Below, one piece after another: positions 2,361 through 16,885 of a DNA stretch of 26,708 nt. Position 1 is the stretch's first letter; every line of letters starts with the position of its first letter. The notes below the pieces were generated by a model, which saw only the letters and a program-made list of their open reading frames with translations, made no database searches and was not told the origin of the DNA. The translations under genes and the position numbers were made by a program. The stretch covers positions 1 through 26,708 of the forward strand of contig JAFVXO010000055.1 in assembly GCA_017501105.1 (NCBI GenBank), in the 5' to 3' direction. The DNA comes from Clostridia bacterium. GTDB taxonomy: Bacteria; Bacillota; Clostridia; RGIG7378.

Positions 2361-4580
2361 ATGACAGATATGAGAAACAACTTCGATCCACAGGAGCTTG
2401 CTGTCGAAAATGGCAGGCTTAGTCATGTAGTTGGCGTTATTTCACGCAAGCTATATGAGCAGGAGCATCTGTCTGAGATACTTCGCGGTGACAACGTTAA
2501 ACTTAATCAGTTAATGTGGGACGATACCGCCAAGGCAATTTATGACTTTGACGATGTAGCAGCTATGCCAATTTACTTGTCCGATATGCAGCAGATGGCA
2601 TACAGGAGAGAGCGCAACGCCAAAATGATTGATTTTCTTAATAGAATTATCGATTCTCCATGGTTTGCGCGTATTTCTTTCGTTGAAGACGGTGAAAGCA
2701 ATGTGGATAACTACTACATCGGTATTGGAAACCTTAACGATGACAAGGGCAACATCCTTGTTATAGACTGGCGTGCAGACATTAGCAGCCTATACTACGA
2801 CAGCGATATTGGCCCGTCATTTTATGAGACACGAGGCTATAAAATCACCGGCAATTTAACCGGCAAGCGTCAGTACAAGATTTCCGACAGACAGATCAAG
2901 TTTATGTTTGATTCAGATGTGGCTATTGAGGACCAGCTGTTGATTGAGCTGCTGGAGAATAACACATCTCCTCATATGAAAAATATTGTAAGCACCATTC
3001 AGAGAGAGCAGAATAGTGTTATCAAGTCAGCTCCCGGTGGAGTGCTTATTGTTTCAGGTCCTGCAGGCTCTGGTAAGACTTCTGTGGCTATGCACAGAAT
3101 TGCATATCTGATGTATCGTGAGCGCAAGACCTTCAATGCAAATTCTATTTTGATTTTATCTCCAAACAATATTTTTAACGACTATATATCTGATGTTTTG
3201 CCCAGTTTGGGTGAGGATTCTGTAAATAGTATGGTTTTTGCCGGGATAATTCCCGACACGCTTCCAATGCCCGAGGGTATTTCGGTTCAAACCGGAATTT
3301 CATTTATGAACAATGCTGCTGGCAATATTTCCAGGGCCAGAGCAAACTCTATTTCCATAAAATCTTCTCCTGAATTCACTGATACAATGGAGAAGTTCCT
3401 CAGCCCAGAATCTGTAGGACACAATCGGTTTAGAGATATTATGGATGGAGATACTGTTATCTTTTCAGCAAAGGATATGGAGGAGTTTTTCTTTAGTTCA
3501 TATCCTGGCCTGACCATTCAAATGCGCATGAACCGTATTCGCAACGCAGGAAATGCGGCAATTATGTCCTGGGCGGAGCAGGAGAGCCAACGGTTGTTTG
3601 AAATTGAGACAGAAAATACTACTGTTTTAGGCGACGGTTCTGAAATTATGTCCAAGTGCCGTGCAATGGTCCGTGGCAAGGTATCTCAACACCTAGGTGA
3701 ACTCTTCAATATCACAACTCTCAATGTCTACAATATATATCGAACTTTCCTGAGACGATTGGCCAGGGGACGCATTCGTACAAACATGGATACTGGCATG
3801 TTGACAGATGCCTATGAGACCTACATGGATGCTGCTGAGGCTGGTGTTATGCAGTACGAGGATTATTGCGCATATGCCTTGGCCAGCCTTATGCTGGGCA
3901 TTGTAGAGCCCAACAAAAACATTCTGCATGTGGTTATAGATGAGGCTCAGGATTATTCATTTTTACAATTCAGACTACTTAGGTTGATGTACCCTGTGGC
4001 ATCCTTTACATGCCTGGGCGATCCCAATCAGAGGGTAAATCCGTATACTGGATCTGATAATCTTTCTGCTATTCCCGGAGCATTTAAGGGGACTCAGATT
4101 ACCCGCATTAATTTGAACAAGAGTTTTCGATCCACCTCAGAGATTAGTAAATTCTGCTCAGACTTGTTGGGAGGCACGATTGGCGACAATGTGGACAGAC
4201 ATGGTCAGCCGGTTAAGTTAAACCAATGTGCTTCTACGGTGGATTTTGCCGATTATGTTTTTAACGTGATTGATGATATTGATGCCAGTTCAACCACAGC
4301 TGTTTTATGTAAAAATATCGAGCAATGCAACAGGTGCTATGATATATTAAAGTCCAAGGGCATCTATTCAAGAATCGTTTTGTCCGATGCTGCCGGCACT
4401 GTGGGTATTTCACCCGGCATTCTGACGATAATGCCTGTATTCATGGCTAAGGGTCTTGAGTTTGATAATGTCATTATCTATAACAGCAACAGCTACGCCC
4501 AGGACACCGCTGGCCGACAGTTACTATATACGGCCTGCACCAGAGCATTGCACAGGTTGTATGTAAATAGGTTTGTATAG
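2361..4580 (+). CDS. helD: HelD-type (helicase IV-like, UvrD/Rep superfamily 1) ATPase
   Basis: 739 aa. N-terminal segment YYIGIGNL...VIDWRADISSLYYD is characteristic of HelD. Walker A GPAGSGKTSVAMHRIAY, Walker B/DEAQ box VVIDEAQDY, and C-terminal motif LYTACTRALHRLYV. GAGG RBS 6 nt before the ATG. Confidence 0.8.
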   Translation: MTDMRNNFDPQELAVENGRLSHVVGVISRKLYEQEHLSEILRGDNVKLNQLMWDDTAKAIYDFDDVAAMPIYLSDMQQMAYRRERNAKMIDFLNRIIDSPWFARISFVEDGESNVDNYYIGIGNLNDDKGNILVIDWRADISSLYYDSDIGPSFYETRGYKITGNLTGKRQYKISDRQIKFMFDSDVAIEDQLLIELLENNTSPHMKNIVSTIQREQNSVIKSAPGGVLIVSGPAGSGKTSVAMHRIAYLMYRERKTFNANSILILSPNNIFNDYISDVLPSLGEDSVNSMVFAGIIPDTLPMPEGISVQTGISFMNNAAGNISRARANSISIKSSPEFTDTMEKFLSPESVGHNRFRDIMDGDTVIFSAKDMEEFFFSSYPGLTIQMRMNRIRNAGNAAIMSWAEQESQRLFEIETENTTVLGDGSEIMSKCRAMVRGKVSQHLGELFNITTLNVYNIYRTFLRRLARGRIRTNMDTGMLTDAYETYMDAAEAGVMQYEDYCAYALASLMLGIVEPNKNILHVVIDEAQDYSFLQFRLLRLMYPVASFTCLGDPNQRVNPYTGSDNLSAIPGAFKGTQITRINLNKSFRSTSEISKFCSDLLGGTIGDNVDRHGQPVKLNQCASTVDFADYVFNVIDDIDASSTTAVLCKNIEQCNRCYDILKSKGIYSRIVLSDAAGTVGISPGILTIMPVFMAKGLEFDNVIIYNSNSYAQDTAGRQLLYTACTRALHRLYVNRFV

Positions 4581-4583
4581 TTT

Positions 4584-6218
4584 GTGAGGACTACTTTGAG
4601 TAATAACGTCAACAAGAGAATAGGGTGGTCGGCTCTCATTGTAATGAGCTCATTAATTGTAAGCAGGATTACCGGATTCATTCGGGAAATGCTGGTTGTC
4701 AACTGTTTTTCGGACAGTTTACTTACTGACGGATACAATTATGCCTTTACAATTACAGACTTCTTCTACTATCTGTTGTTAGGCGGGTCCATTGCCTCAG
4801 CTCTAATACCTGTAATGACAAAACATATTTCCGCAGGTCCTGATCAGGAATCCGAGGGATGGAGAGGCACCAGCGCATTTATTAATGTATTTATGTGCAT
4901 TTTGTTGTTTGTGTGTGGACTGGGTATGATTTTCTCCAGACAGATTCTGGATTTGTGGTTTCCTCAATATGCTGTTGGTTCTGCTGATCCCGAGTTTTAC
5001 CGAAATACCGTTGCGTCACTGATACGCATACTTTTCCCGTCTGTTGTCTGCATGATGATAACAGGTTTTATGAACGGTATCCTCAATTCCTATAAGCGCT
5101 TTGCAGCAGCAGCCTATGGCCCCACCATATACAACATTTGCTGTTGTCTGGCTATATTTGTATTCAGAGGAAATATTATCCACGTTGCCCTTGGTGTACT
5201 AGCCAGTTCATTTACCTATATGTGCATACAGATTGCTTTTACATCCAGACATCTCAGAAACTATACATTCAATTTTGACGTTCGACACCCTGCATTCAAG
5301 AGCCTGGTGATACTCGCAATTCCAACGCTGCTATCATCGGCCCTTAATCAGCTTAATGTTGTTGTCACCAAGACATTTACACAGTTCTATGATGCAGGAG
5401 CTGTTACTGCCCTCAATAACGCAAACAGCTTGTGGCAGATGCCATACGGTATATTTGCTGCTGGAATCGGTACCGCTATGCTTCCATCAATCAGTGAATA
5501 CTTTGCCACACAGAAGAGGGACATGTTCAATGAGACAATGCGCTCCAGCATCAGATATGTTATGTATCTGGTCATTCCATCAGCTTTTGCATTTTATGTC
5601 CTCAGCGACCAACTTGCTGCCTCTGTATTCCTATGGTCCAATAATGTATCGAATACGCTGATTTCCGACATAGGAATTTTACTCAAATGTATGTCTTTTT
5701 GCATGGTATTTCAATCTGTGATTTACCTTTGCTACAGGGCCTTTTACGCCTCCCACAACACAAAAATACCTCTGTATTCGGCAGTTATTAACGTGCTGCT
5801 TACTACAGTTTTTGGTACACTAATAGTGCAATTGACTGACTGGAGTGTCGTGGCCATCGGATATATGTACACTGCTGCCTCACTGCTGACCTGTGTTATT
5901 ACATGTATAATGGCATACACCAAGTTGGGCAATTTTGGTATCAAGAACATTCTGGTAGGAACCGGGCTTATGTGTGTGTGTTCAGCTATTATGTCAATAG
6001 CACTGTACGGTTTAGGCAAGGTATTAACAGTGAATATTACACCTGCACTGTTTACCCTTTCATCAAAGGTTCATGACCTTTTTAACCTTGTACTGCTAGT
6101 AGTTGTAGGTGTTGTGGTCTACTTTACGTCGTCTGCATTGATGCATATAGAGGAGGCCACCAAGGTGCTGAGTACTATATGCAACAAGCTTGGTATTAAA
6201 ATTCACAGAAATTCTTGA
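4584..6218 (+). CDS. murJ: lipid II flippase, MurJ/MviN family
   Basis: 544 aa, polytopic (about 14 hydrophobic segments). N-terminus ...IVMSSLIVSRITGFIREMLVVNCFS matches the MurJ 'SR.lGf.Re' signature. Start is GTG 4584 or in-frame TTG 4596 (GAGGA at 4586-4590). Confidence 0.8.
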   Translation: MRTTLSNNVNKRIGWSALIVMSSLIVSRITGFIREMLVVNCFSDSLLTDGYNYAFTITDFFYYLLLGGSIASALIPVMTKHISAGPDQESEGWRGTSAFINVFMCILLFVCGLGMIFSRQILDLWFPQYAVGSADPEFYRNTVASLIRILFPSVVCMMITGFMNGILNSYKRFAAAAYGPTIYNICCCLAIFVFRGNIIHVALGVLASSFTYMCIQIAFTSRHLRNYTFNFDVRHPAFKSLVILAIPTLLSSALNQLNVVVTKTFTQFYDAGAVTALNNANSLWQMPYGIFAAGIGTAMLPSISEYFATQKRDMFNETMRSSIRYVMYLVIPSAFAFYVLSDQLAASVFLWSNNVSNTLISDIGILLKCMSFCMVFQSVIYLCYRAFYASHNTKIPLYSAVINVLLTTVFGTLIVQLTDWSVVAIGYMYTAASLLTCVITCIMAYTKLGNFGIKNILVGTGLMCVCSAIMSIALYGLGKVLTVNITPALFTLSSKVHDLFNLVLLVVVGVVVYFTSSALMHIEEATKVLSTICNKLGIKIHRNS

Positions 6219-10938: not shown

Positions 10939-11730
10939 ATGAAAATCGGTTTTTTTGATTCTGGTATCGGCGGGTTAACAGTACTCGCCGATGCCGCAAC
11001 TTTATACAAAGATTGCGAGTTTATATATTTTGGGGATGTAATACATGCTCCATATGGTACCAAGGATAGAGAACAAGTTTTATGTTTAACCTTGGACGCT
11101 GTCGAAACTCTTGCAAAGGAAAATCTCGATGCACTGGTTGTAGCCTGTAATACTGCAACCAGTGTTGCTGTACGTGCCCTTAGAGAAAAGTACTCTTTTC
11201 CCATCATTGGCATGGAGCCTGCATTAAAGCCGGCTCTTTCCGCTTCTGAGGGAAACATTTTAGTTTTAGCTACTGAATTAACACTGAGGGAGTCAAAATT
11301 CAAATACTTGGTTGACACATTTAATGCAACAGACAGAGTCTTAAAGCTTCCCATGGGAAATCTGGTTAAGTTTGCTGAGGCTGGAGATTTTGATTCACCG
11401 CAGTTAGTTGAGTATATTAAAAAGCAACTAAGTACCATTGATTTAAAGAACATTGATTCAGTTGTTTTAGGATGCACACACTTCCTGTACTTCAGAAATA
11501 TTATTGAAAAATTACTCCCCGGGCATATTCGTATTTTTGATGGCAACTCAGGAACAATTCGTCACACCGCTAAGTTAACCGGAGTTGATATGAGAGCTAC
11601 ATCTGCTGATCCCGATTTTGGCAGGATTAAGTTTTACATGTCGGGTTTGCTTCTGGATGACCATTGTCTGAAATACCATCAGTTTATAGATTCGATAAAT
11701 AATTATCTTGGAGGTAGAAAAAATGGGTAG
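10939..11730 (+). CDS. murI: glutamate racemase
   Basis: MKIGFFDSGIGGLTVL, the two catalytic-Cys motifs VVACNTATS and VLGCTHF, and a length of 263 aa. Confidence 0.93.
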   Translation: MKIGFFDSGIGGLTVLADAATLYKDCEFIYFGDVIHAPYGTKDREQVLCLTLDAVETLAKENLDALVVACNTATSVAVRALREKYSFPIIGMEPALKPALSASEGNILVLATELTLRESKFKYLVDTFNATDRVLKLPMGNLVKFAEAGDFDSPQLVEYIKKQLSTIDLKNIDSVVLGCTHFLYFRNIIEKLLPGHIRIFDGNSGTIRHTAKLTGVDMRATSADPDFGRIKFYMSGLLLDDHCLKYHQFIDSINNYLGGRKNG

Positions 11731-12814
11731 CGAAAGAGATATGATTATTGATCGTTGTGAAAAATTGCATGCCGCAATTAACAGAAGCGAATCTTATGCT
11801 GTTTTGTTGACCAACGACTATAATGTCAGGTATTTTTCCGGTTTTACCGGAGACTCTACATATTGTCTGATTATTGGGGATGACAAATACGTTATAACTG
11901 ACTCCAGATATACACTCCAATGTTCTCAACAGTGTCCCGGATATACTGTTGTAGATTCTAAAAACAACTTGATGCTATGTACCTCCGAACTGGTAAAAGC
12001 ATCAGGCGTATCTACTCTATATGTTGAAAGCGATATTTCAGCAGCAGCATGGTTACAGATAAACAGTATAATGGGTTGCAAAGAGTACCCATTTGTGGAC
12101 CAGTACACCGCTGAGATTCGAACAGTTAAGGACAAATTCGAGCAGGAATACTCTGCGATTGCTGCATCCATTGCAACAGAATCCCTTGAGGTGATTTGCA
12201 AGTTGCTCCGTCCAGGTGTCTCCGAGCATACAATTGCTCTGGAACTTGAGTATGAAATGAAAAAGAGAGGCGCATCAGGCACTTCTTTTGATACTATTGT
12301 TGCCTCCGGTGCCAGATCCGCATTGCCCCACGGGGTTGCATCATCCAAAATAATCGAGGCAGGAGACCCTGTAACAATTGACTTTGGCTGCATTTACAAT
12401 GGATATTGTTCCGATTGTACCCGTACTTTGTTTGTTGGCACACCTGACCAACGCATGGTTGAAATTTATAACATTGTCCTCAAGGCACAGACAGAGGCTC
12501 AGGCTGCAATTAAATCAGGAGTTACCGGCAAGTACGTTGATAGCATTGCAAGAGGTATTATTGCAGATGCTGGCTACGGCGAAAGATTTGGCCACGGTAC
12601 AGGTCATGGAACCGGCCTTGAGATCCACGAAGCACCCAGACTAAGCCCATCTGCAGTTGCGGACAAGATTTTAACTCCTGGTATGATCGTTACTTGTGAG
12701 CCAGGCATTTACATTGATGGCTTTGGGGGCGTTCGTATTGAAGATCAGAGCATAGTAGAGGATAAAGGCAGTAGAATATTGAGCTCTTTCCCCAAGGAAC
12801 TCATTATTTTATAA
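11723..12814 (+). CDS. M24B-family Xaa-Pro aminopeptidase/dipeptidase (YqhT-like)
   Basis: Creatinase-like N-domain plus pita-bread fold. Metal ligands in DFGCIYNGYCSDCTRT, GHGTGHGTGLEIHEAP and CEPGIY...GGVRIED. Start placed at ATG 11723 (GGAGG at 11710-11714), overlapping murI by 8 nt. Sits upstream of efp, as in Bacillus. Confidence 0.88.
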   Translation: MGSERDMIIDRCEKLHAAINRSESYAVLLTNDYNVRYFSGFTGDSTYCLIIGDDKYVITDSRYTLQCSQQCPGYTVVDSKNNLMLCTSELVKASGVSTLYVESDISAAAWLQINSIMGCKEYPFVDQYTAEIRTVKDKFEQEYSAIAASIATESLEVICKLLRPGVSEHTIALELEYEMKKRGASGTSFDTIVASGARSALPHGVASSKIIEAGDPVTIDFGCIYNGYCSDCTRTLFVGTPDQRMVEIYNIVLKAQTEAQAAIKSGVTGKYVDSIARGIIADAGYGERFGHGTGHGTGLEIHEAPRLSPSAVADKILTPGMIVTCEPGIYIDGFGGVRIEDQSIVEDKGSRILSSFPKELIIL

Positions 12815-12821
12815 GGTAAAC

Positions 12822-12850
12822 TTGATTATTGACAGAATATAAAGTATTAT
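12822..12850 (+). promoter_or_regulatory. candidate sigma-A promoter for efp (TTGATT - 17 nt - TATTAT)
   Basis: -35-like TTGATT at 12822-12827 and -10-like TATTAT at 12845-12850 in the 68-nt gap before efp. Sequence match only. Confidence 0.35.
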
Positions 12851-12882
12851 GATTCAGTTAATTCAATTATTATGGAGGTAAT

Positions 12883-13443
12883 ATGATTACAGCAGGCGAT
12901 TTTAGAAACGGCGTTACATTTGAGCTTGAGGGCAATGTATTTAAGATTATAGAGTTCCAGCACGTTAAGCCCGGCAAGGGATCTGCTTTTGTTAGAACAA
13001 AGCTTAGAAACGTTATTACAGGTGCTACTGTAGACAGAACATTCAATCCTACAGACAAGATGGAGCTTGCTCGTATCGACCGTAGAGAGATGCAGTATCT
13101 TTACAACGACGGCGAGTCTGATATCTTCATGGATATGGAGACATATGATCAGATTCCGATTTTGCCCGACCTTCTTGGCGATTCTCTCAAGTTTGTTAAG
13201 GAGAACGATGTTGTTACAGTTCTTTCTTACAAAGGCAAGATTTTCGGCGTTGAGCCTCCTACATTTGTAGAGCTCATGGTTACCAAGGCTGATCCCGGTG
13301 TTAGAGGTGATACAGCAACTAACGTTACCAAGAATGCAGTTCTTGAGACAGGTGCTGAGGTCAGAGTGCCTCTGTTCATCAACGAGGGCGAGATGATTCG
13401 CGTTGATACAAGAACAGGCGAATATCTTGAGCGCGTTAAGTAA
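12883..13443 (+). CDS. efp: translation elongation factor P
   Basis: [47 protein letters not shown]... 186 aa, including the conserved KPGKG loop. GGAGG RBS. Confidence 0.97.
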
Positions 13444-13475
13444 ACAATATTGATAGTATTTTTTCGGAGGTCCAC

Positions 13476-14102
13476 ATGGATAACAGAAAATTGACTTCTA
13501 TTCTTAAGAAGATTAATAACATTGAGTCAACCAATCCCGATATTGCCGATGTTTTGAAGACAATTCTGGATTGCATTGAGGAGCTCGATGATAACGTGGA
13601 CGAGCTGTTTGACACAGTCGATGAGATTAACTCCGACATGGACGAGGTGTTTGAATCTCTGGACGATATCGACGAGACTCTCGATGAGATTTTTGATTTC
13701 GAGTCCCTCGAGGACATTGATGATCTCGAAGATGAGGATGAATGCTGTTGTTGTGGCGACGACTGTGATTGCGACTGCGATGACGACTGTGATGACGATG
13801 AGTGCCATTGCGGATGCCATTGTCACGATGATGATGACTGCGATTGTCTCGATTGTGATTATAACGAGGAGGATGACACACTCTCTCTTTCATGTCCCTA
13901 TTGTGAGCATGAGATATTTTTCCAGATTGAGGATGAGGACATCAAGGCCGGTGGTATGGAGCTTCATTGCAACAACTGTGACAAAGATTTTGCCGTAAGC
14001 TTCCAAATGGCTGATGATTGTGGTTGTGACTGCGATTGCGACTGTGATTGCGAGGATGAGTGCGATGATGACTGCGATTGTGGTTGCCATCATCACGAAT
14101 AA
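13476..14102 (+). CDS. hyper-acidic Cys/Asp-repeat protein with central zinc ribbon (uncharacterised)
   Basis: 208-aa ORF with a GGAGG RBS 6 nt before the ATG. It lies 32 nt after efp with no intervening terminator and is followed by a strong terminator. Residues 1-89 are acidic and helical-looking, with reiterated [VIM]DE[LVI]F-like units. Residues 90-128 read CCCCGDDCDCDCDDDCDDDECHCGCHCHDDDDCDCLDCD. Residues 140-168 read CPYC-x21-CNNC. Residues 182-208 read CGCDCDCDCDCEDECDDDCDCGCHHHE. The Cys/Asp codons alternate (tgt/tgc, gat/gac), so this is not a simple DNA microsatellite. Confidence 0.8.
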   Translation: MDNRKLTSILKKINNIESTNPDIADVLKTILDCIEELDDNVDELFDTVDEINSDMDEVFESLDDIDETLDEIFDFESLEDIDDLEDEDECCCCGDDCDCDCDDDCDDDECHCGCHCHDDDDCDCLDCDYNEEDDTLSLSCPYCEHEIFFQIEDEDIKAGGMELHCNNCDKDFAVSFQMADDCGCDCDCDCDCEDECDDDCDCGCHHHE

Positions 14103-14125
14103 TTCAATTTTATTCTAGTTAATTT

Positions 14126-14156
14126 ACCGTAGGCCCGTGGTCTACGGTATTTTTTT
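14126..14156 (+). terminator. rho-independent terminator
   Basis: Stem ACCGTAG (14126-14132) pairs with CTACGGT (14142-14148), with a 9-nt loop, followed by ATTTTTTT. Confidence 0.8.
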
Positions 14157-14231: not shown

Positions 14232-14414
14232 ATGAAACTGATCTTTGAAATAGCTGCCATCGGCATAGTCACATCCCTACTATCCATAATGTTGGATTCT
14301 GCAGGAAAGAAAGATATTTCAATTCTATTGTGTATAGCTGGCACCATTGCTTCAGTTTTATTGATTGCAAACGAGGCATCAAACTTGATGTCTGTGCTTA
14401 AGGAGTTGTCATGA
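14232..14414 (+). CDS. spoIIIAC: stage III sporulation protein AC
   Basis: 60 aa with two TM helices. The pattern IFEIAAIGIVTSLLSIML..SGKKD...L...AGTI..VLL......NLMSVLKEL matches SpoIIIAC. GGAGGA RBS. Position precedes the AD-like gene. Confidence 0.75.
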   Translation: MKLIFEIAAIGIVTSLLSIMLDSAGKKDISILLCIAGTIASVLLIANEASNLMSVLKELS

Positions 14415-14773
14415 TAGCCTGTATATCCATTGTTTTAGTTGCAATAATTGCCAAAGTTATACTCGAACAATGCAATTCAAAACTGGCTATTCTGCCAATA
14501 ATTGCTGCAGCCATTATTTTATCTTTGATATTTGCAAACAAATATCTGGAATCCATGGACTATATCAGTCAATTTGCATCACTGGGCGACAACGTCAAAT
14601 CAATAATGCACCTTATTCTAATTGGCACTATAGGTGAAAAGTTGTCTGAGGCAGCTGGAGAAAGAGGGCTTTCAACCCTGATTAAATGCGTTTCATACAG
14701 TTTCCTCTGCATCAATGCAATAAATATGTTCAGGGAAATGGCAGAAACCATAAAATTAGGTGGATTTATATGA
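14411..14773 (+). CDS. spoIIIAD: stage III sporulation protein AD
   Basis: 120 aa, multi-TM, with the central motif ...LILIGTIGEKLSEAAGERGLSTLIKCV... resembling the SpoIIIAD 'iaeia..ic.DaGe.aia' segment. ATGA overlap with spoIIIAC. Confidence 0.72.
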   Translation: MIACISIVLVAIIAKVILEQCNSKLAILPIIAAAIILSLIFANKYLESMDYISQFASLGDNVKSIMHLILIGTIGEKLSEAAGERGLSTLIKCVSYSFLCINAINMFREMAETIKLGGFI

Positions 14774-15702
14774 GTTACGAGGAATTTTTTGAATCCTTCA
14801 ACATATCTCAACTGGAAATCCAAGGAAATCCGATATCTGTACCTGACTTAACTATATTAGCTGGTAATGTAATATTTGTTGTAATTTTTGTTTTATTATC
14901 CAAAACTCTGAATTCAAACATATCCAACAAATATACAGGTTTGATATGCATGATGACAGGTATAGGTCTGCTGGTTCAGCTGTACGATGTGGTTTTCGAT
15001 GCACTTGCATCCTGCACTTCGTACATGATGTTGTGTGTATCCACAATATTTGGAATTGTTACCTATGCCCAGGGGTTAGGACTGGACATGTCGGGATTGT
15101 CTCTTGCCGGGTCAGTTGGAATACCGATAATTTGCAGTACATATACCAACATGGGTATAAACGTATTTAAAGCATCTTGTTGCCTTGGGTTGTGCGGCAC
15201 TATATCAGGCTCTGGTCGATTTAGAAGTTTATCCGAAATTACATCCGGGACCTGTAAATTTTTAATGTGGTTCTTTGGAATAGTTACATCATTTCTTGTT
15301 GTATACATATCGACCACATGTAAAGTAGTCGGTTCATACAGCATGATGACATTGCGAACGGCCAAACTATCTGCCGGCACACTATCGCCATTGTTGGGCA
15401 AAGACTTGGGCGAAATATCCGAGGTTGTGTTTGATTCGTTGGCTGTAATATCGGCGACAGCTGGCAAATATATAACTTCCTCTATAGTTGCTCTCTGTGT
15501 ATTTCCGCTAATAAAGGCAGAATTAATATTTATTGAACTAAAACTCCTGGGTAGTATAACAGAAAACATCAGCGACTCAAGATGTTTATCAAATGCAGCC
15601 ACAGGCGGTATGGTTGCTATATCAATTTTATTTTCTGTATGTGTCTGTTTGTTGCTGGTAACGTCGGCTCTATGTGGTGTATGTGAGAAATTTCAAGTAT
15701 GA
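14770..15702 (+). CDS. spoIIIAE: stage III sporulation protein AE (polytopic membrane protein)
   Basis: 310 aa from ATG 14770 (AGGTGGA RBS; ATGA overlap with spoIIIAD). The track's 14686 start lies inside spoIIIAD. Multiple TM helices, in the operon position between AD and the AF-like gene. Shorter than my recollection of the Bacillus protein (about 400 aa). Confidence 0.72.
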   Translation: MSYEEFFESFNISQLEIQGNPISVPDLTILAGNVIFVVIFVLLSKTLNSNISNKYTGLICMMTGIGLLVQLYDVVFDALASCTSYMMLCVSTIFGIVTYAQGLGLDMSGLSLAGSVGIPIICSTYTNMGINVFKASCCLGLCGTISGSGRFRSLSEITSGTCKFLMWFFGIVTSFLVVYISTTCKVVGSYSMMTLRTAKLSAGTLSPLLGKDLGEISEVVFDSLAVISATAGKYITSSIVALCVFPLIKAELIFIELKLLGSITENISDSRCLSNAATGGMVAISILFSVCVCLLLVTSALCGVCEKFQV

Positions 15703-15875
15703 AAATTATTTTAACAGTATTTGTAGCAGCTGCTGTGGAAATTCTAATTGACGACGAAAACTATATCAGATTATTGGATGTAATCATGGCTATTACTGTT
15801 TTGTTAATGATATTGGAAACATACAGTCCCATGATAAGTGAAGTAATCGCCAATTTCATAAAGGAGGGTATATGA
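15699..15875 (+). CDS. SpoIIIAF-like membrane peptide (58 aa; TM region only, no ring-building domain)
   Basis: Below the ORF-track size cutoff. ATG 15699 overlaps the spoIIIAE stop (ATGA) and its stop overlaps the next ATG (ATGA). Translation: MKIILTVFVAAAVEILIDDENYIRLLDVIMAITVLLMILETYSPMISEVIANFIKEGI. The pattern 'v..iLi.....y..ll.v.....vllmil.p' resembles the two-TM N-terminus of B. subtilis SpoIIIAF as I recall it (IVIDMLLPSSSMQKYAKMVVSLLLIVVMLTPI). Confidence 0.5.
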   Translation: MKIILTVFVAAAVEILIDDENYIRLLDVIMAITVLLMILETYSPMISEVIANFIKEGI

Positions 15876-16234
15876 TTAACATAAAAGACAAGTTAAATAA
15901 CAGCAAAATTGTTGTAATCATCAGTATAGTTGCCCTATGTGCTATGTTGATTATTACTTTTACGGAAATTTTTGCAGACGACAAATCGGATATTATTAAC
16001 TCCGAATTCAACGAAACAAGTAATTCGGATCTGAATTATTATCTCAGTGCCATAGAAGGTGTAGGTAATGCTCAATCATTAATTAGCTATGATAGAGACG
16101 GTTATCCAATGGGAGCCGTAGTCATTTGTGATAACCTAAACAAGGAGACCGAATATAAGGTTAAAAATGCCGTCCATGTAATTACAGGAATTCCCCTAAG
16201 CGATATCTGTGTATATTCTGGCAGTAATAATTAG
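15872..16234 (+). CDS. SpoIIIAG-like protein (one TM plus minimal ring-building motif)
   Basis: 120 aa. TM helix IVVIISIVALCAMLIITF, then LSAIEGVGNAQSLISY-DRDGYPM-GAVVICDNLNKETEYKVKNAVHVITGIPLSDICVY. This matches the SpoIIIAG C-terminal pattern 'L..IeGVg.v.V.i......GV.VVaeGa....k..i..Av..l..v....I.V', but only about 7 residues sit where the Bacillus protein has a long insertion. Confidence 0.6.
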   Translation: MINIKDKLNNSKIVVIISIVALCAMLIITFTEIFADDKSDIINSEFNETSNSDLNYYLSAIEGVGNAQSLISYDRDGYPMGAVVICDNLNKETEYKVKNAVHVITGIPLSDICVYSGSNN

Positions 16235-16282
16235 GTAATGGTCATCATAATATCAACTAAAGACAAATAAGTGAGGATTATT

Positions 16283-16885
16283 ATGATGATTATTAAGAGA
16301 AAACAGATAATTGTTGTTGCCGTTGCATTGCTACTATTGTTGGCGGGAGTTGTACAGATTGTATTTGGTGGACGCAATACAGATATACCCAGCCAAGGCG
16401 ACAACACCGAAGTAGTGGACAAAGACTCTAATAACAGTAGTAGCGTTATATTTGACGACGTTGTTTCTGATTCAAATTCCAACTCGGACGTAAATGTAGA
16501 TGCAGATATTTCTACACCATCAGATAAGGATTTTAACAACTTTTTTGCATACGAAAAGACTGAACGTAAATCATTGAGAGAAAACCGCCAGGAAGCCCTG
16601 AACAGCATTACTGAGAGTCAGACTGCGGATGAAGCCTCCAAATCTCAGGCATATACGTCTCTTATGGAGTTGGTGGCTCTTACTGAGAAGGAACAATCCC
16701 TTGAAAACATGATTATTGGCTGTGGATATGATGACTGCATTGTATATTTCTTTGAAGATGGAACAATTGATGTATGCGTTGCCGCAACTGAGATGTCGGG
16801 AGTAGAGGCAACTAAAATAGCTGACATTGTTGCCAGGAATACAGCCACCACTTTAGACAACGTCTACGTTAAGACTAAGTTCTAG
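16283..16885 (+). CDS. spoIIIAH: stage III sporulation protein AH
   Basis: N-terminal TM helix (IIVVAVALLLLLAGVV), a polar acidic linker, and the C-terminal pattern SLENMIIGCGYDDCIVYFFEDGTIDVCVAATEMSGVEATKIADIVARNT typical of SpoIIIAH. Start is ATG 16283 or 16286 (GAGGA at 16273-16277); the track uses GTG 16271. Confidence 0.75.
   Translation: MMIIKRKQIIVVAVALLLLLAGVVQIVFGGRNTDIPSQGDNTEVVDKDSNNSSSVIFDDVVSDSNSNSDVNVDADISTPSDKDFNNFFAYEKTERKSLRENRQEALNSITESQTADEASKSQAYTSLMELVALTEKEQSLENMIIGCGYDDCIVYFFEDGTIDVCVAATEMSGVEATKIADIVARNTATTLDNVYVKTKF

Follow-up and report, generated by a model that had tools for sequence, protein, structure and literature searches.

The window analysed here is a stretch of 26,708 nucleotides (nt) from a Clostridia bacterium (assembly GCA_017501105.1, contig JAFVXO010000055.1, positions 1 to 26,708), and the subject is an open reading frame (ORF) at its centre, located immediately 3' of efp, the gene of elongation factor P (EF-P). 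A preliminary description, made from the letters of the DNA, had read it as a hyper-acidic gene of 208 amino acids (aa) in which Cys and Asp alternate, and a recount of the ORF and its composition confirms this. The ORF is a real gene for an extremely acidic zinc-ribbon protein, which on sequence comparison is a divergent, remote relative of the CD1247-type family (NCBIfam NF045650, "CD1247 N-terminal domain-containing protein"), and its two Cys/Asp/His tracts are probably segments for the binding of many metal ions. The gene, its parts and its flanking signals are the following.

13476..14102, + strand: whole ORF, 208 aa and stop, ATG start (ORF call and translation)
13476..13742, + strand: N-terminal acidic helical domain (N-domain), aa 1-89, with predicted helices 3-19 and 21-75 (AlphaFold2 predicted local distance difference test, pLDDT, about 90 over aa 11-70)
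13743..13859, + strand: Cys/Asp/His tract 1, aa 90-128, predicted disordered, at the position of the family's acidic linker (AlphaFold2 pLDDT below 50 over aa 85-122)
13854..13997, + strand: predicted zinc-ribbon domain, aa 127-174, with knuckles CPYC (aa 140-143) and CNNC (aa 165-168) (AlphaFold2 strands and family ribbon profile)
14019..14099, + strand: Cys/Asp/His tract 2, aa 182-208, predicted disordered, in place of the family's acidic tail (low AlphaFold2 pLDDT)
12822..12850, + strand: sigma-70-like promoter candidate upstream of efp, TTGATT-17-TATTAT (consensus scan, 9/12 matches)
12883..13443, + strand: efp, elongation factor P, 186 aa, the conserved upstream partner (Pfam EFP_N, EFP and Elong-fact-P_C all found)
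13466..13470, + strand: Shine-Dalgarno sequence GGAGG, 5 nt ahead of the ATG (direct reading)
14125..14156, + strand: intrinsic terminator closing the unit of efp and the ORF, ahead of spoIIIAC (14232) (stem at 14125-14149 with 11 pairs, 6 of them G-C, and a 3-nt loop, then TTTTTTT)

By script recount the product holds 55 Asp, 25 Glu, 30 Cys, 8 His, 6 Lys and 1 Arg, with five of the seven basic residues within the first 28 aa, a calculated isoelectric point of about 4.05 and a mass of 23.7 kDa. The residue numbers first given stand for Asp, Glu, Cys and the basic residues, while His is corrected from 7 to 8; the four segments quoted in the preliminary description agree with the translation in their letters and nucleotide positions. 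Cys makes up 14.4% of the protein versus 1.8% in the other 24 ORFs of the window taken as genes, and Asp plus Glu 38.5% versus 11.7%, a composition far beyond chance and beyond the local norm. Tract 1 carries 15 Cys in 39 aa and tract 2 carries 10 in 27 aa, which corresponds to 37-40% Cys, with CxC and CC motifs, the former dominant, and no aromatic residues. The protein has no hydrophobic N-terminus and is cytoplasmic.

Cys is encoded by TGT 15 times and by TGC 15 times, and Asp by GAT 35 times and by GAC 20 times. Overlapping ORFs in alternative frames, spanning 13527-14096 (140 aa at 13576..13998 on the + strand; 99, 88 and 68 aa on the minus strand, e.g. 13527..13826), look like by-products of the GAY/TGY repeat composition. 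Outside the tracts, non-synonymous change in frame 1 is well below synonymous change among relatives, which fits the coding frame.

Concerning expression, the gene is probably co-transcribed with efp, given the close spacing (a gap of 32 nt), the Shine-Dalgarno sequence and the absence of any terminator-like site between the two genes in a terminator scan. Co-transcription and a closing terminator had both been proposed earlier, and these signals, together with the 11-pair stem and T-run after the ORF, agree with the proposal. The promoter candidate upstream of efp is weak, the number of such sites in the region not being above shuffle expectation.

Domain layout and relation to the CD1247-type family

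The central motif of the product is a confidently predicted beta zinc ribbon, with two CxxC knuckles on beta hairpins. AlphaFold2 places strands at 135-139, 146-150, 161-164 and 171-174 around CPYC and CNNC, and the mean pLDDT of successive 10-residue blocks over aa 131-170 is 87, 91, 71 and 93. The preliminary description had spoken of a rubredoxin- or zinc-ribbon-like core; the AlphaFold2 model supports the zinc ribbon, and the rubredoxin half falls away, there being no profile match. Foldseek, which it had proposed for a predicted structure, was run and returned generic zinc ribbons only, the best match of the model being the ZitP zinc finger (E 0.12, TM 0.50 on the target). Two candidate identities were rejected: rubredoxin, with no Pfam or NCBIfam match and only generic zinc ribbons in Foldseek and PDB sequence searches, and a DksA/TraR-type factor, zf-dskA_traR not being among the Pfam matches at E <= 10 and no DksA-like structure appearing in Foldseek. 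At the end of the N-domain, a 27-nt tandem duplication (13673-13729; 2.1 copies, 76% matches) encodes the reiterated ETLDEIFDF / ESLEDIDDL units that the preliminary description had noticed.

The relation to the CD1247-type family was reached through a single weak match. Word-indexed homologue searches were largely defeated by low complexity and did not return the query itself; they gave only P0001 and P0002, at about 50% identity in the first search, and one weak match, P0003, by which the ORF product is tied to the family. P0003 scores 71.8 bits on NF045650 (model cut-off 30) and consists of a helical N-terminus, a tract DDDDCDCHCGDDCDCDCDDDDCDCGCHCHDD, a CPSC...CPAC ribbon and an acidic tail; its AlphaFold2 model, with helices 3-18 and 22-73, a disordered linker, the ribbon and a disordered tail, shows the same layout as the model of the ORF product. 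Profile-profile alignment (hhalign) of the window's clade, comprising the window and the loci L008, L009 and L005, against 30 CD1247-type members gives 97.8% probability, E 1.3e-12 and 121 collinear columns taking in N-domain, linker and ribbon, a score that common acidic composition can inflate; a MAFFT alignment is collinear too. Because of this possible inflation, family-only profiles and shuffles were used. The ribbon reaches 21.8 bits against a profile built from 30 classical members only, versus a maximum of 8.9 in 2000 composition-preserving shuffles, and the product matches the family-specific ribbon motif CPxC[G/E]HEIxF ... CxxC.K beyond composition.

Besides the composition effect in hhalign, several results weigh against membership. 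The N-domain obtains just 3.4 bits on the family-only profile, a score reached by 15 of 2000 shuffles (p about 0.008). The ORF product has no NF045650 match at E <= 10 and stays below the family cut-off, and the clade member P0001 obtains 13.8 bits (E 0.07) on the same model. Direct Pfam and NCBIfam scans of the product give only sub-threshold matches to helical or coiled-coil families, on the N-terminal helices. We treat the product as a remote homologue because the curated N-domain threshold is failed but ribbon, architecture and genomic position are shared.

The family itself is large, with 2193 clusters at 90% identity in a search with P0003 and 978 clusters at 50% identity (E <= 1e-10) in a profile search of 1.84 billion representatives. 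Its conserved layout begins with an N-domain of two helices, continues with a disordered poly-Asp/Glu linker and a C4 zinc ribbon, and ends in an acidic tail. The ORF product is collinear with this layout in all four parts, and many members also have Cys/His-rich linkers, as seen in P0003. It departs from the family in its N-domain, which lies below the model cut-off, in a 3-residue insertion in the ribbon and a second knuckle CNNC instead of CPxC, in a tail that is a second Cys/Asp/His tract (among the 80 family representatives with full architecture that were surveyed for tracts, just 8 have tail Cys), and in its 30 Cys, more than in any family sequence inspected individually. The family is named but functionally uncharacterised, and a literature search found no functional study of it; the preliminary description, which had recognised no characterised family, is corrected to that extent by the hhalign, ribbon, architecture and position results. 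Some family entries look like gene-call or assembly artefacts, namely P0126 and P0191, in which unrelated N-terminal extensions are fused to the ribbon half, and P0210 and P0203, which look frameshifted after the Cys tract; the family's apparent diversity is inflated by counting such entries.

Small stand-alone zinc-ribbon proteins (FmdB/CxxC_CxxC_SSSS, the archaeal HVO_2753 type and ribosome-bound zinc ribbons) offer a further comparison. They share two CxxC knuckles on beta hairpins, and family members have precomputed Pfam matches to PF09723, PF07754 and PF08274; P0003 obtains 22.4 bits on TIGR02605, below its cut-off of 31.3, and archaeal zinc ribbons associated with the ribosome are matched weakly in sequence and fold. 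None of these matches reaches significance (E 0.1 to 4), and ribbons this short match each other in a generic way, which gives no evidence of shared function.

Genomic linkage to efp

Synteny statistics refer to 80 metagenomic loci, obtained by a metagenome scan with the classical family alignment; a genome-contig scan, whose confirmation step had used the divergent window protein, confirmed just 3 of 260 pattern matches. Of the family loci, 57 include 650 nt or more of upstream DNA, and in 56 of these efp is the gene immediately ahead, in the same orientation, typically at a distance of 15-40 nt. The script had counted 54 within its gap window, to which L046 and L064 were added, their start codons having been placed too far upstream; L095 is the sole exception. 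Of the loci, 31 are at least 5 kb long; all of these have efp upstream, 18 have an M24 Xaa-Pro peptidase gene before efp, and spoIIIAC is detectable downstream in 4. The homologous gene also has efp directly upstream in L005, L008-L011 and L014, and this holds for all loci of the window's clade; the contig of L013 is cut, and just the 3' end of efp is present. On 9 metagenomic contigs the identical protein is encoded among the same neighbours; four contigs with this protein besides the window's own were retrieved, and the DNA of the gene is identical on them too.

Downstream genes vary. Writing X for the gene in question and its homologues, the order is efp-X-spoIIIAC in L009 and efp-X-spoIIIAA-AB-AC in L067, and in L008 (86% global identity of the protein, 176/204 aligned residues) the gene after X is predicted, from a reading of its ORF, to encode a GGDEF-type (diguanylate cyclase-like) sensor. 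The closest sister, P0001 (GCA_018396375.1), has murI - M24 peptidase - efp - X - nusB - xseA, and in this lineage (L005) no spoIIIA genes lie between X and nusB. The classical-member loci L010, L011, L013 and L014 have unrelated genes downstream. In the window, spoIIIAC begins 130 nt after the ORF, and spoIIIAC-AH occupy 14232-16885. Since efp is near-constant, the genes that follow differ between loci and spoIIIA is missing at this place in the closest sister lineage, the link of the ORF is to efp and not to sporulation. In C. difficile 630, CD1246 is efp (PMC3933415), so that CD1247, which gave the family its name, bears the neighbouring locus number. The preliminary description had also assigned the gene to the slot held by yqhV in B. 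subtilis, which is right as a matter of position only (efp-X-spoIIIAA in L067). The neighbourhood comparison among Clostridia that it had suggested shows a gene near-always after efp, with spoIIIA downstream inconstant.

Some observations concern the neighbouring genes themselves. No spoIIIAA (ATPase) or spoIIIAB gene was found at the spoIIIA cluster or elsewhere in the window; in the stretch of L067 compared with it (3548-5320), a 352-aa ORF with a GKTT Walker A is read as spoIIIAA by position and motif. A stepwise loss of sporulation channel genes in the window's clade is suggested. In L003, where the DNA of the gene is identical to that of the window, the spoIIIAD call has 114 aa at 1533-1877 versus 120 aa at 14411-14773 in the window, and when the downstream DNA is compared position by position, 670 of 1500 nt do not match, which points to an indel or a rearrangement in the spoIIIA remnant among members of the same strain group. 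Before efp, the window has an M24 Xaa-Pro aminopeptidase gene (11708-13443 for this gene and efp), giving a recurrent arrangement of M24 peptidase, efp and acidic zinc-ribbon gene that may be functionally themed around proline-containing peptides.

Conservation of the Cys/Asp tracts

Within the window's clade EF-P is 94-97% identical, and the synonymous divergence (dS) of efp from the window is 0.39, 0.65 and 1.5 for L008, L009 and L005, respectively, the order kept for the values below, with the window put first where there are four. The X proteins share 86%, 73% and 66% identity with the window protein. Between the first Cys beyond residue 60 and the ribbon there are 15, 15, 17 and 9 Cys, and in tract 2 there are 10, 9, 10 and 8. 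As many as 26, 25 and 16 of the window's 30 Cys are aligned to Cys, with 11, 9 and 11 of them using the other codon (about 35-70% of aligned positions); these counts lean high, as alignment within low-complexity tracts is ambiguous, and to that extent they speak less strongly for selection on the tracts. Codon switches are reported because the Nei-Gojobori proportion of synonymous differences (pS) is unusable in the tracts, where values above 1 are an artefact of two-fold degenerate codons at saturation. For L008, the closest relative, non-synonymous divergence per site is 0.17 in tract 1 and 0.03 in tract 2, with synonymous sites saturated; for L009 and L005 the proportion of non-synonymous differences (pN) in the tracts lies between 0.15 and 0.31, which is not below the value for the remainder of the protein. 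Tract lengths and in-frame indels differ among the four members. In tract 2 of the window, 7 CxC are found versus 2.2 expected from shuffling (p = 0.001).

From these comparisons, the Cys residues of the window's clade are under protein-level selection, while segment lengths change by in-frame indels. Maintenance at the protein level had been argued earlier from the irregular alternation of synonymous codons, and the Cys kept and codon-switched at saturated synonymous sites uphold it with one qualification. Tandem Repeats Finder reports a weak 6-nt and 12-nt periodicity in both tracts (71-79% matches), which together with the 27-nt duplication indicates that DNA-level, short in-frame duplication contributed to the tracts.

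For the family as a whole, the picture is less uniform. Among the 80 representatives, the linker has no Cys in 46, at least one in 34 and at least six in 10. Pairs in which each of the two folded domains is at least 90% identical number 524; the count of linker Cys is the same within 491 of them and differs within 33, and close relatives can differ by 7 versus 0 (P0006 and P0033) or by 3 versus 0 (P0034 and P0114). The Cys(/His) tracts are optional, i.e. dispensable, for the family. The preliminary description had taken tracts that are absent or hypervariable between close strains as the mark of unconstrained low complexity; this is in part what the family shows, and it is not what is seen in the window's clade.

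Other sub-lineages, whose N-domains are classical, also have Cys tracts in linker and tail (P0215, P0196, P0143 and the L067 protein), and the tail tracts arose separately, by recurrent gain across sub-lineages. One linker, that of P0140, has 13 His, and some family members carry pure His runs. Among the representatives, His amounts to 4.6% in linkers with at least 2 Cys versus 0.6% in Cys-free linkers (Fisher p = 0.0018), and CxC is the commonest Cys spacing (56/130). There is no enrichment of Tyr or Gly, the intermediates whose codons lie one step from those of both Asp and Cys. A separate observation concerns P0033. Its identity with P0006 and P0010 is 99-100% over the N-domain and 92-97% over the ribbon, yet its linker, free of Cys (GDEDEDAVYDEDD...), is like the linker of P0048, a more distant protein; this looks like linker swapping by recombination, or chimeric assembly of the 1.3-kb contig.

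Possible roles of the tracts

The reading that we favour, with a probability of about 0.5, is that the tracts would be disordered, metallothionein-like segments that bind multiple metal ions and are grafted onto a conserved protein of the efp operon. Multi-metal binding is made plausible by the co-enrichment of His and Cys and by the CxC spacing. In this lineage, linker and tail would have been converted into CxC-dominated Cys/Asp(/His) tracts, probably arising by short in-frame duplications and then kept by selection. Free of metal, the tracts would be unstructured, and they would wrap around several soft or borderline metal ions as thiolate/carboxylate/imidazole clusters. In an anaerobe the most likely metals would be Zn2+ or Fe2+, with Ni, Co, Cu(I) and Cd also possible. 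Mammalian metallothionein uses 20 Cys for 7 divalent ions, and by this stoichiometry the 25 tract Cys would hold roughly 8-9. Joined to the conserved core of the family, the tracts would buffer or store metal, the pattern of gain and loss pointing to an accessory capacity module and not to the core function of the family. The core itself, helical domain and ribbon, would most likely dock on a basic partner linked to translation: the strong conservation of its acidic motifs (YVESIDDDLADLEE and the ribbon in classical members) suggests a specific basic docking partner, and the linkage to efp makes a translation-related one the obvious candidate.

The tracts resemble metallothioneins (among them the bacterial SmtA/BmtA and MymT) in their share of Cys, their CxC and CC motifs, their predicted disorder in the metal-free state and their lack of aromatics; the folding expected around metal-thiolate clusters would be a likeness of the proposed working only. 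Cys-rich segments of the metallothionein kind (about 15-35% Cys) are found in the tracts only and not in the protein as a whole. There is no sequence homology, with no match (e.g. Pfam Metallothio_Pro) in Pfam and NCBIfam scans at E <= 10. The protein, moreover, has 23.7 kDa with two folded non-metallothionein domains, its tracts have mostly Asp between Cys rather than Lys, Ser or Gly, and its gene belongs to a translation-factor operon with no recognised metal-responsive regulator or efflux pump nearby. A second point of comparison is given by metallochaperones (SlyD, HypB, UreE, CooJ; Hpn of Helicobacter), which have variable His/Cys-rich metal-storage tails. As in these proteins, a ligand-rich, low-complexity segment sits on a conserved folded core, some lineages having it and close relatives lacking it, and the pure His runs of some CD1247-type members, e.g. 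P0140, add to the likeness. The differences lie in the lack of homology, in the absence of hydrogenase, urease or CO-dehydrogenase genes nearby, and in tracts dominated by Cys and Asp and not by His.

Together with the optional nature of the tracts, three points count against metal binding. The dense Asp between Cys is unlike classical metallothioneins; the literature search found no study of the family and no metal-binding measurement for any member; and the comparison of two models with the PDB (Foldseek), as well as a PDB-sequence profile search, gave nothing beyond generic zinc ribbons, none of them significant.

The tracts could alternatively be unconstrained low complexity, that is, GAY/TGY repeats made by slippage in a disordered linker and tail, with only the helical domain and the ribbon mattering. 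The weak periodicity and the 27-nt duplication fit such an origin, as do the lengths and indels that vary among the four clade members, the representatives devoid of linker Cys and the difference of 3-7 linker Cys between proteins at least 90% identical, and for part of the tract length neutral low complexity is possible. As an account of the whole it is improbable, since the Cys-rich composition persists past synonymous saturation with Cys codons switched, and Asp-to-Cys changes need two nucleotide steps, yet the Tyr and Gly intermediates are not enriched; the co-occurrence of His with Cys, the excess of CxC in tract 2 and the repeated gain of Cys tracts in different sub-lineages also speak for constraint. 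Thiol chemistry in place of metal storage is a further alternative, which we consider unlikely: the protein would act as a redox buffer, a sink for oxygen or reactive oxygen species, a redox switch, or a carrier of labile iron-sulfur (Fe-S) clusters or (poly)sulfide in a strict anaerobe. Its tracts hold 25 thiols, which would make a large pool supposing a protein level comparable to that of EF-P, and the CxC and CC motifs would be compatible with Fe-S or persulfide chemistry. Canonical Fe-S motifs such as CxxCxxC...C are absent, however, Pfam and NCBIfam scans give no ferredoxin, rubredoxin or thioredoxin family match, no redox or Fe-S assembly genes are nearby, and the co-enrichment of His fits metal ligation better than pure thiol redox.

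The preliminary description had itself raised a role in spore biology, with Ca2+ bound by the acidic tracts; in this scheme the protein would handle Ca2+ or metals together with the spoIIIA products, from the yqhV slot. Its very high Asp content could bind Ca2+, spoIIIAC-AH do follow in the window, and the order seen in L067 exists in some other Clostridia. But a strong terminator separates the gene from spoIIIAC, efp is the partner in 56 of 57 loci, and of the 31 long loci, all have efp upstream but spoIIIAC was detected downstream in only 4; in the closest sister lineage nusB follows X without spoIIIA genes in between, L008 has the GGDEF-type gene after X, and the four classical-member loci have unrelated genes there. 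Synteny largely refutes this role, which we hold to be very unlikely. Least credible is a precursor of a ribosomally synthesized and post-translationally modified peptide (RiPP) of the ranthipeptide/SCIFF type, cross-linked by thioethers between Cys and Asp. Links of this kind occur in some ranthipeptides of Bacillota, and the alternation of Cys and Asp would provide sites for them; the idea was nevertheless rejected on context for want of a maturase, no radical-SAM/SPASM maturase, protease or exporter being present in the 26.7-kb window or in the related loci examined, and a protein of 208 aa with two folded domains at a conserved housekeeping-operon position after efp hardly suits a precursor. 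Among the window's ORFs that were scanned there are no radical-SAM or RiPP genes, and searches of the window for Rfam families and tRNAs found none.

The main value of these results is at the family level, in a near-obligate efp partner that repeatedly acquires Cys/His tracts. Roughly a thousand clusters (50% identity) are found near-always directly after efp in Clostridia, including C. difficile, and genes paired so tightly often have a function in common; should the protein be a conserved, hyper-acidic partner of EF-P with a zinc ribbon, it would be of interest to translation researchers. The repeated gain and loss of Cys/His tracts would amount to a natural experiment in adding metal-buffering capacity to a housekeeping protein. 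The window protein is an extreme and well-conserved case, with 30 Cys and two tracts kept past synonymous saturation, which makes it a good biochemical candidate. To our knowledge, few metallothionein-like proteins have been described from anaerobic Bacillota, and a demonstration of metal binding would add a new type.

A more far-reaching version of the metal-binding reading, which we regard as doubtful, is that CD1247-type proteins would be both a dedicated EF-P/ribosome partner in Clostridia and a new Asp-Cys-repeat metallothionein-like class, coupling the translation apparatus to zinc/iron status. If this were true, they could buffer or deliver Zn for zinc-ribbon ribosomal proteins, and the window protein would be the highest-capacity example, with one further ion in the ribbon besides the roughly 8-9 divalent ions of its 25 tract Cys.

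A final point of detail is related to the 5' part of the window, where a 582-aa minus-strand ORF (497-2245) contains BspA-type leucine-rich repeats (LRR_5, 180 bits); no other large minus-strand gene was noted in this housekeeping block, whose genes otherwise run in one direction.

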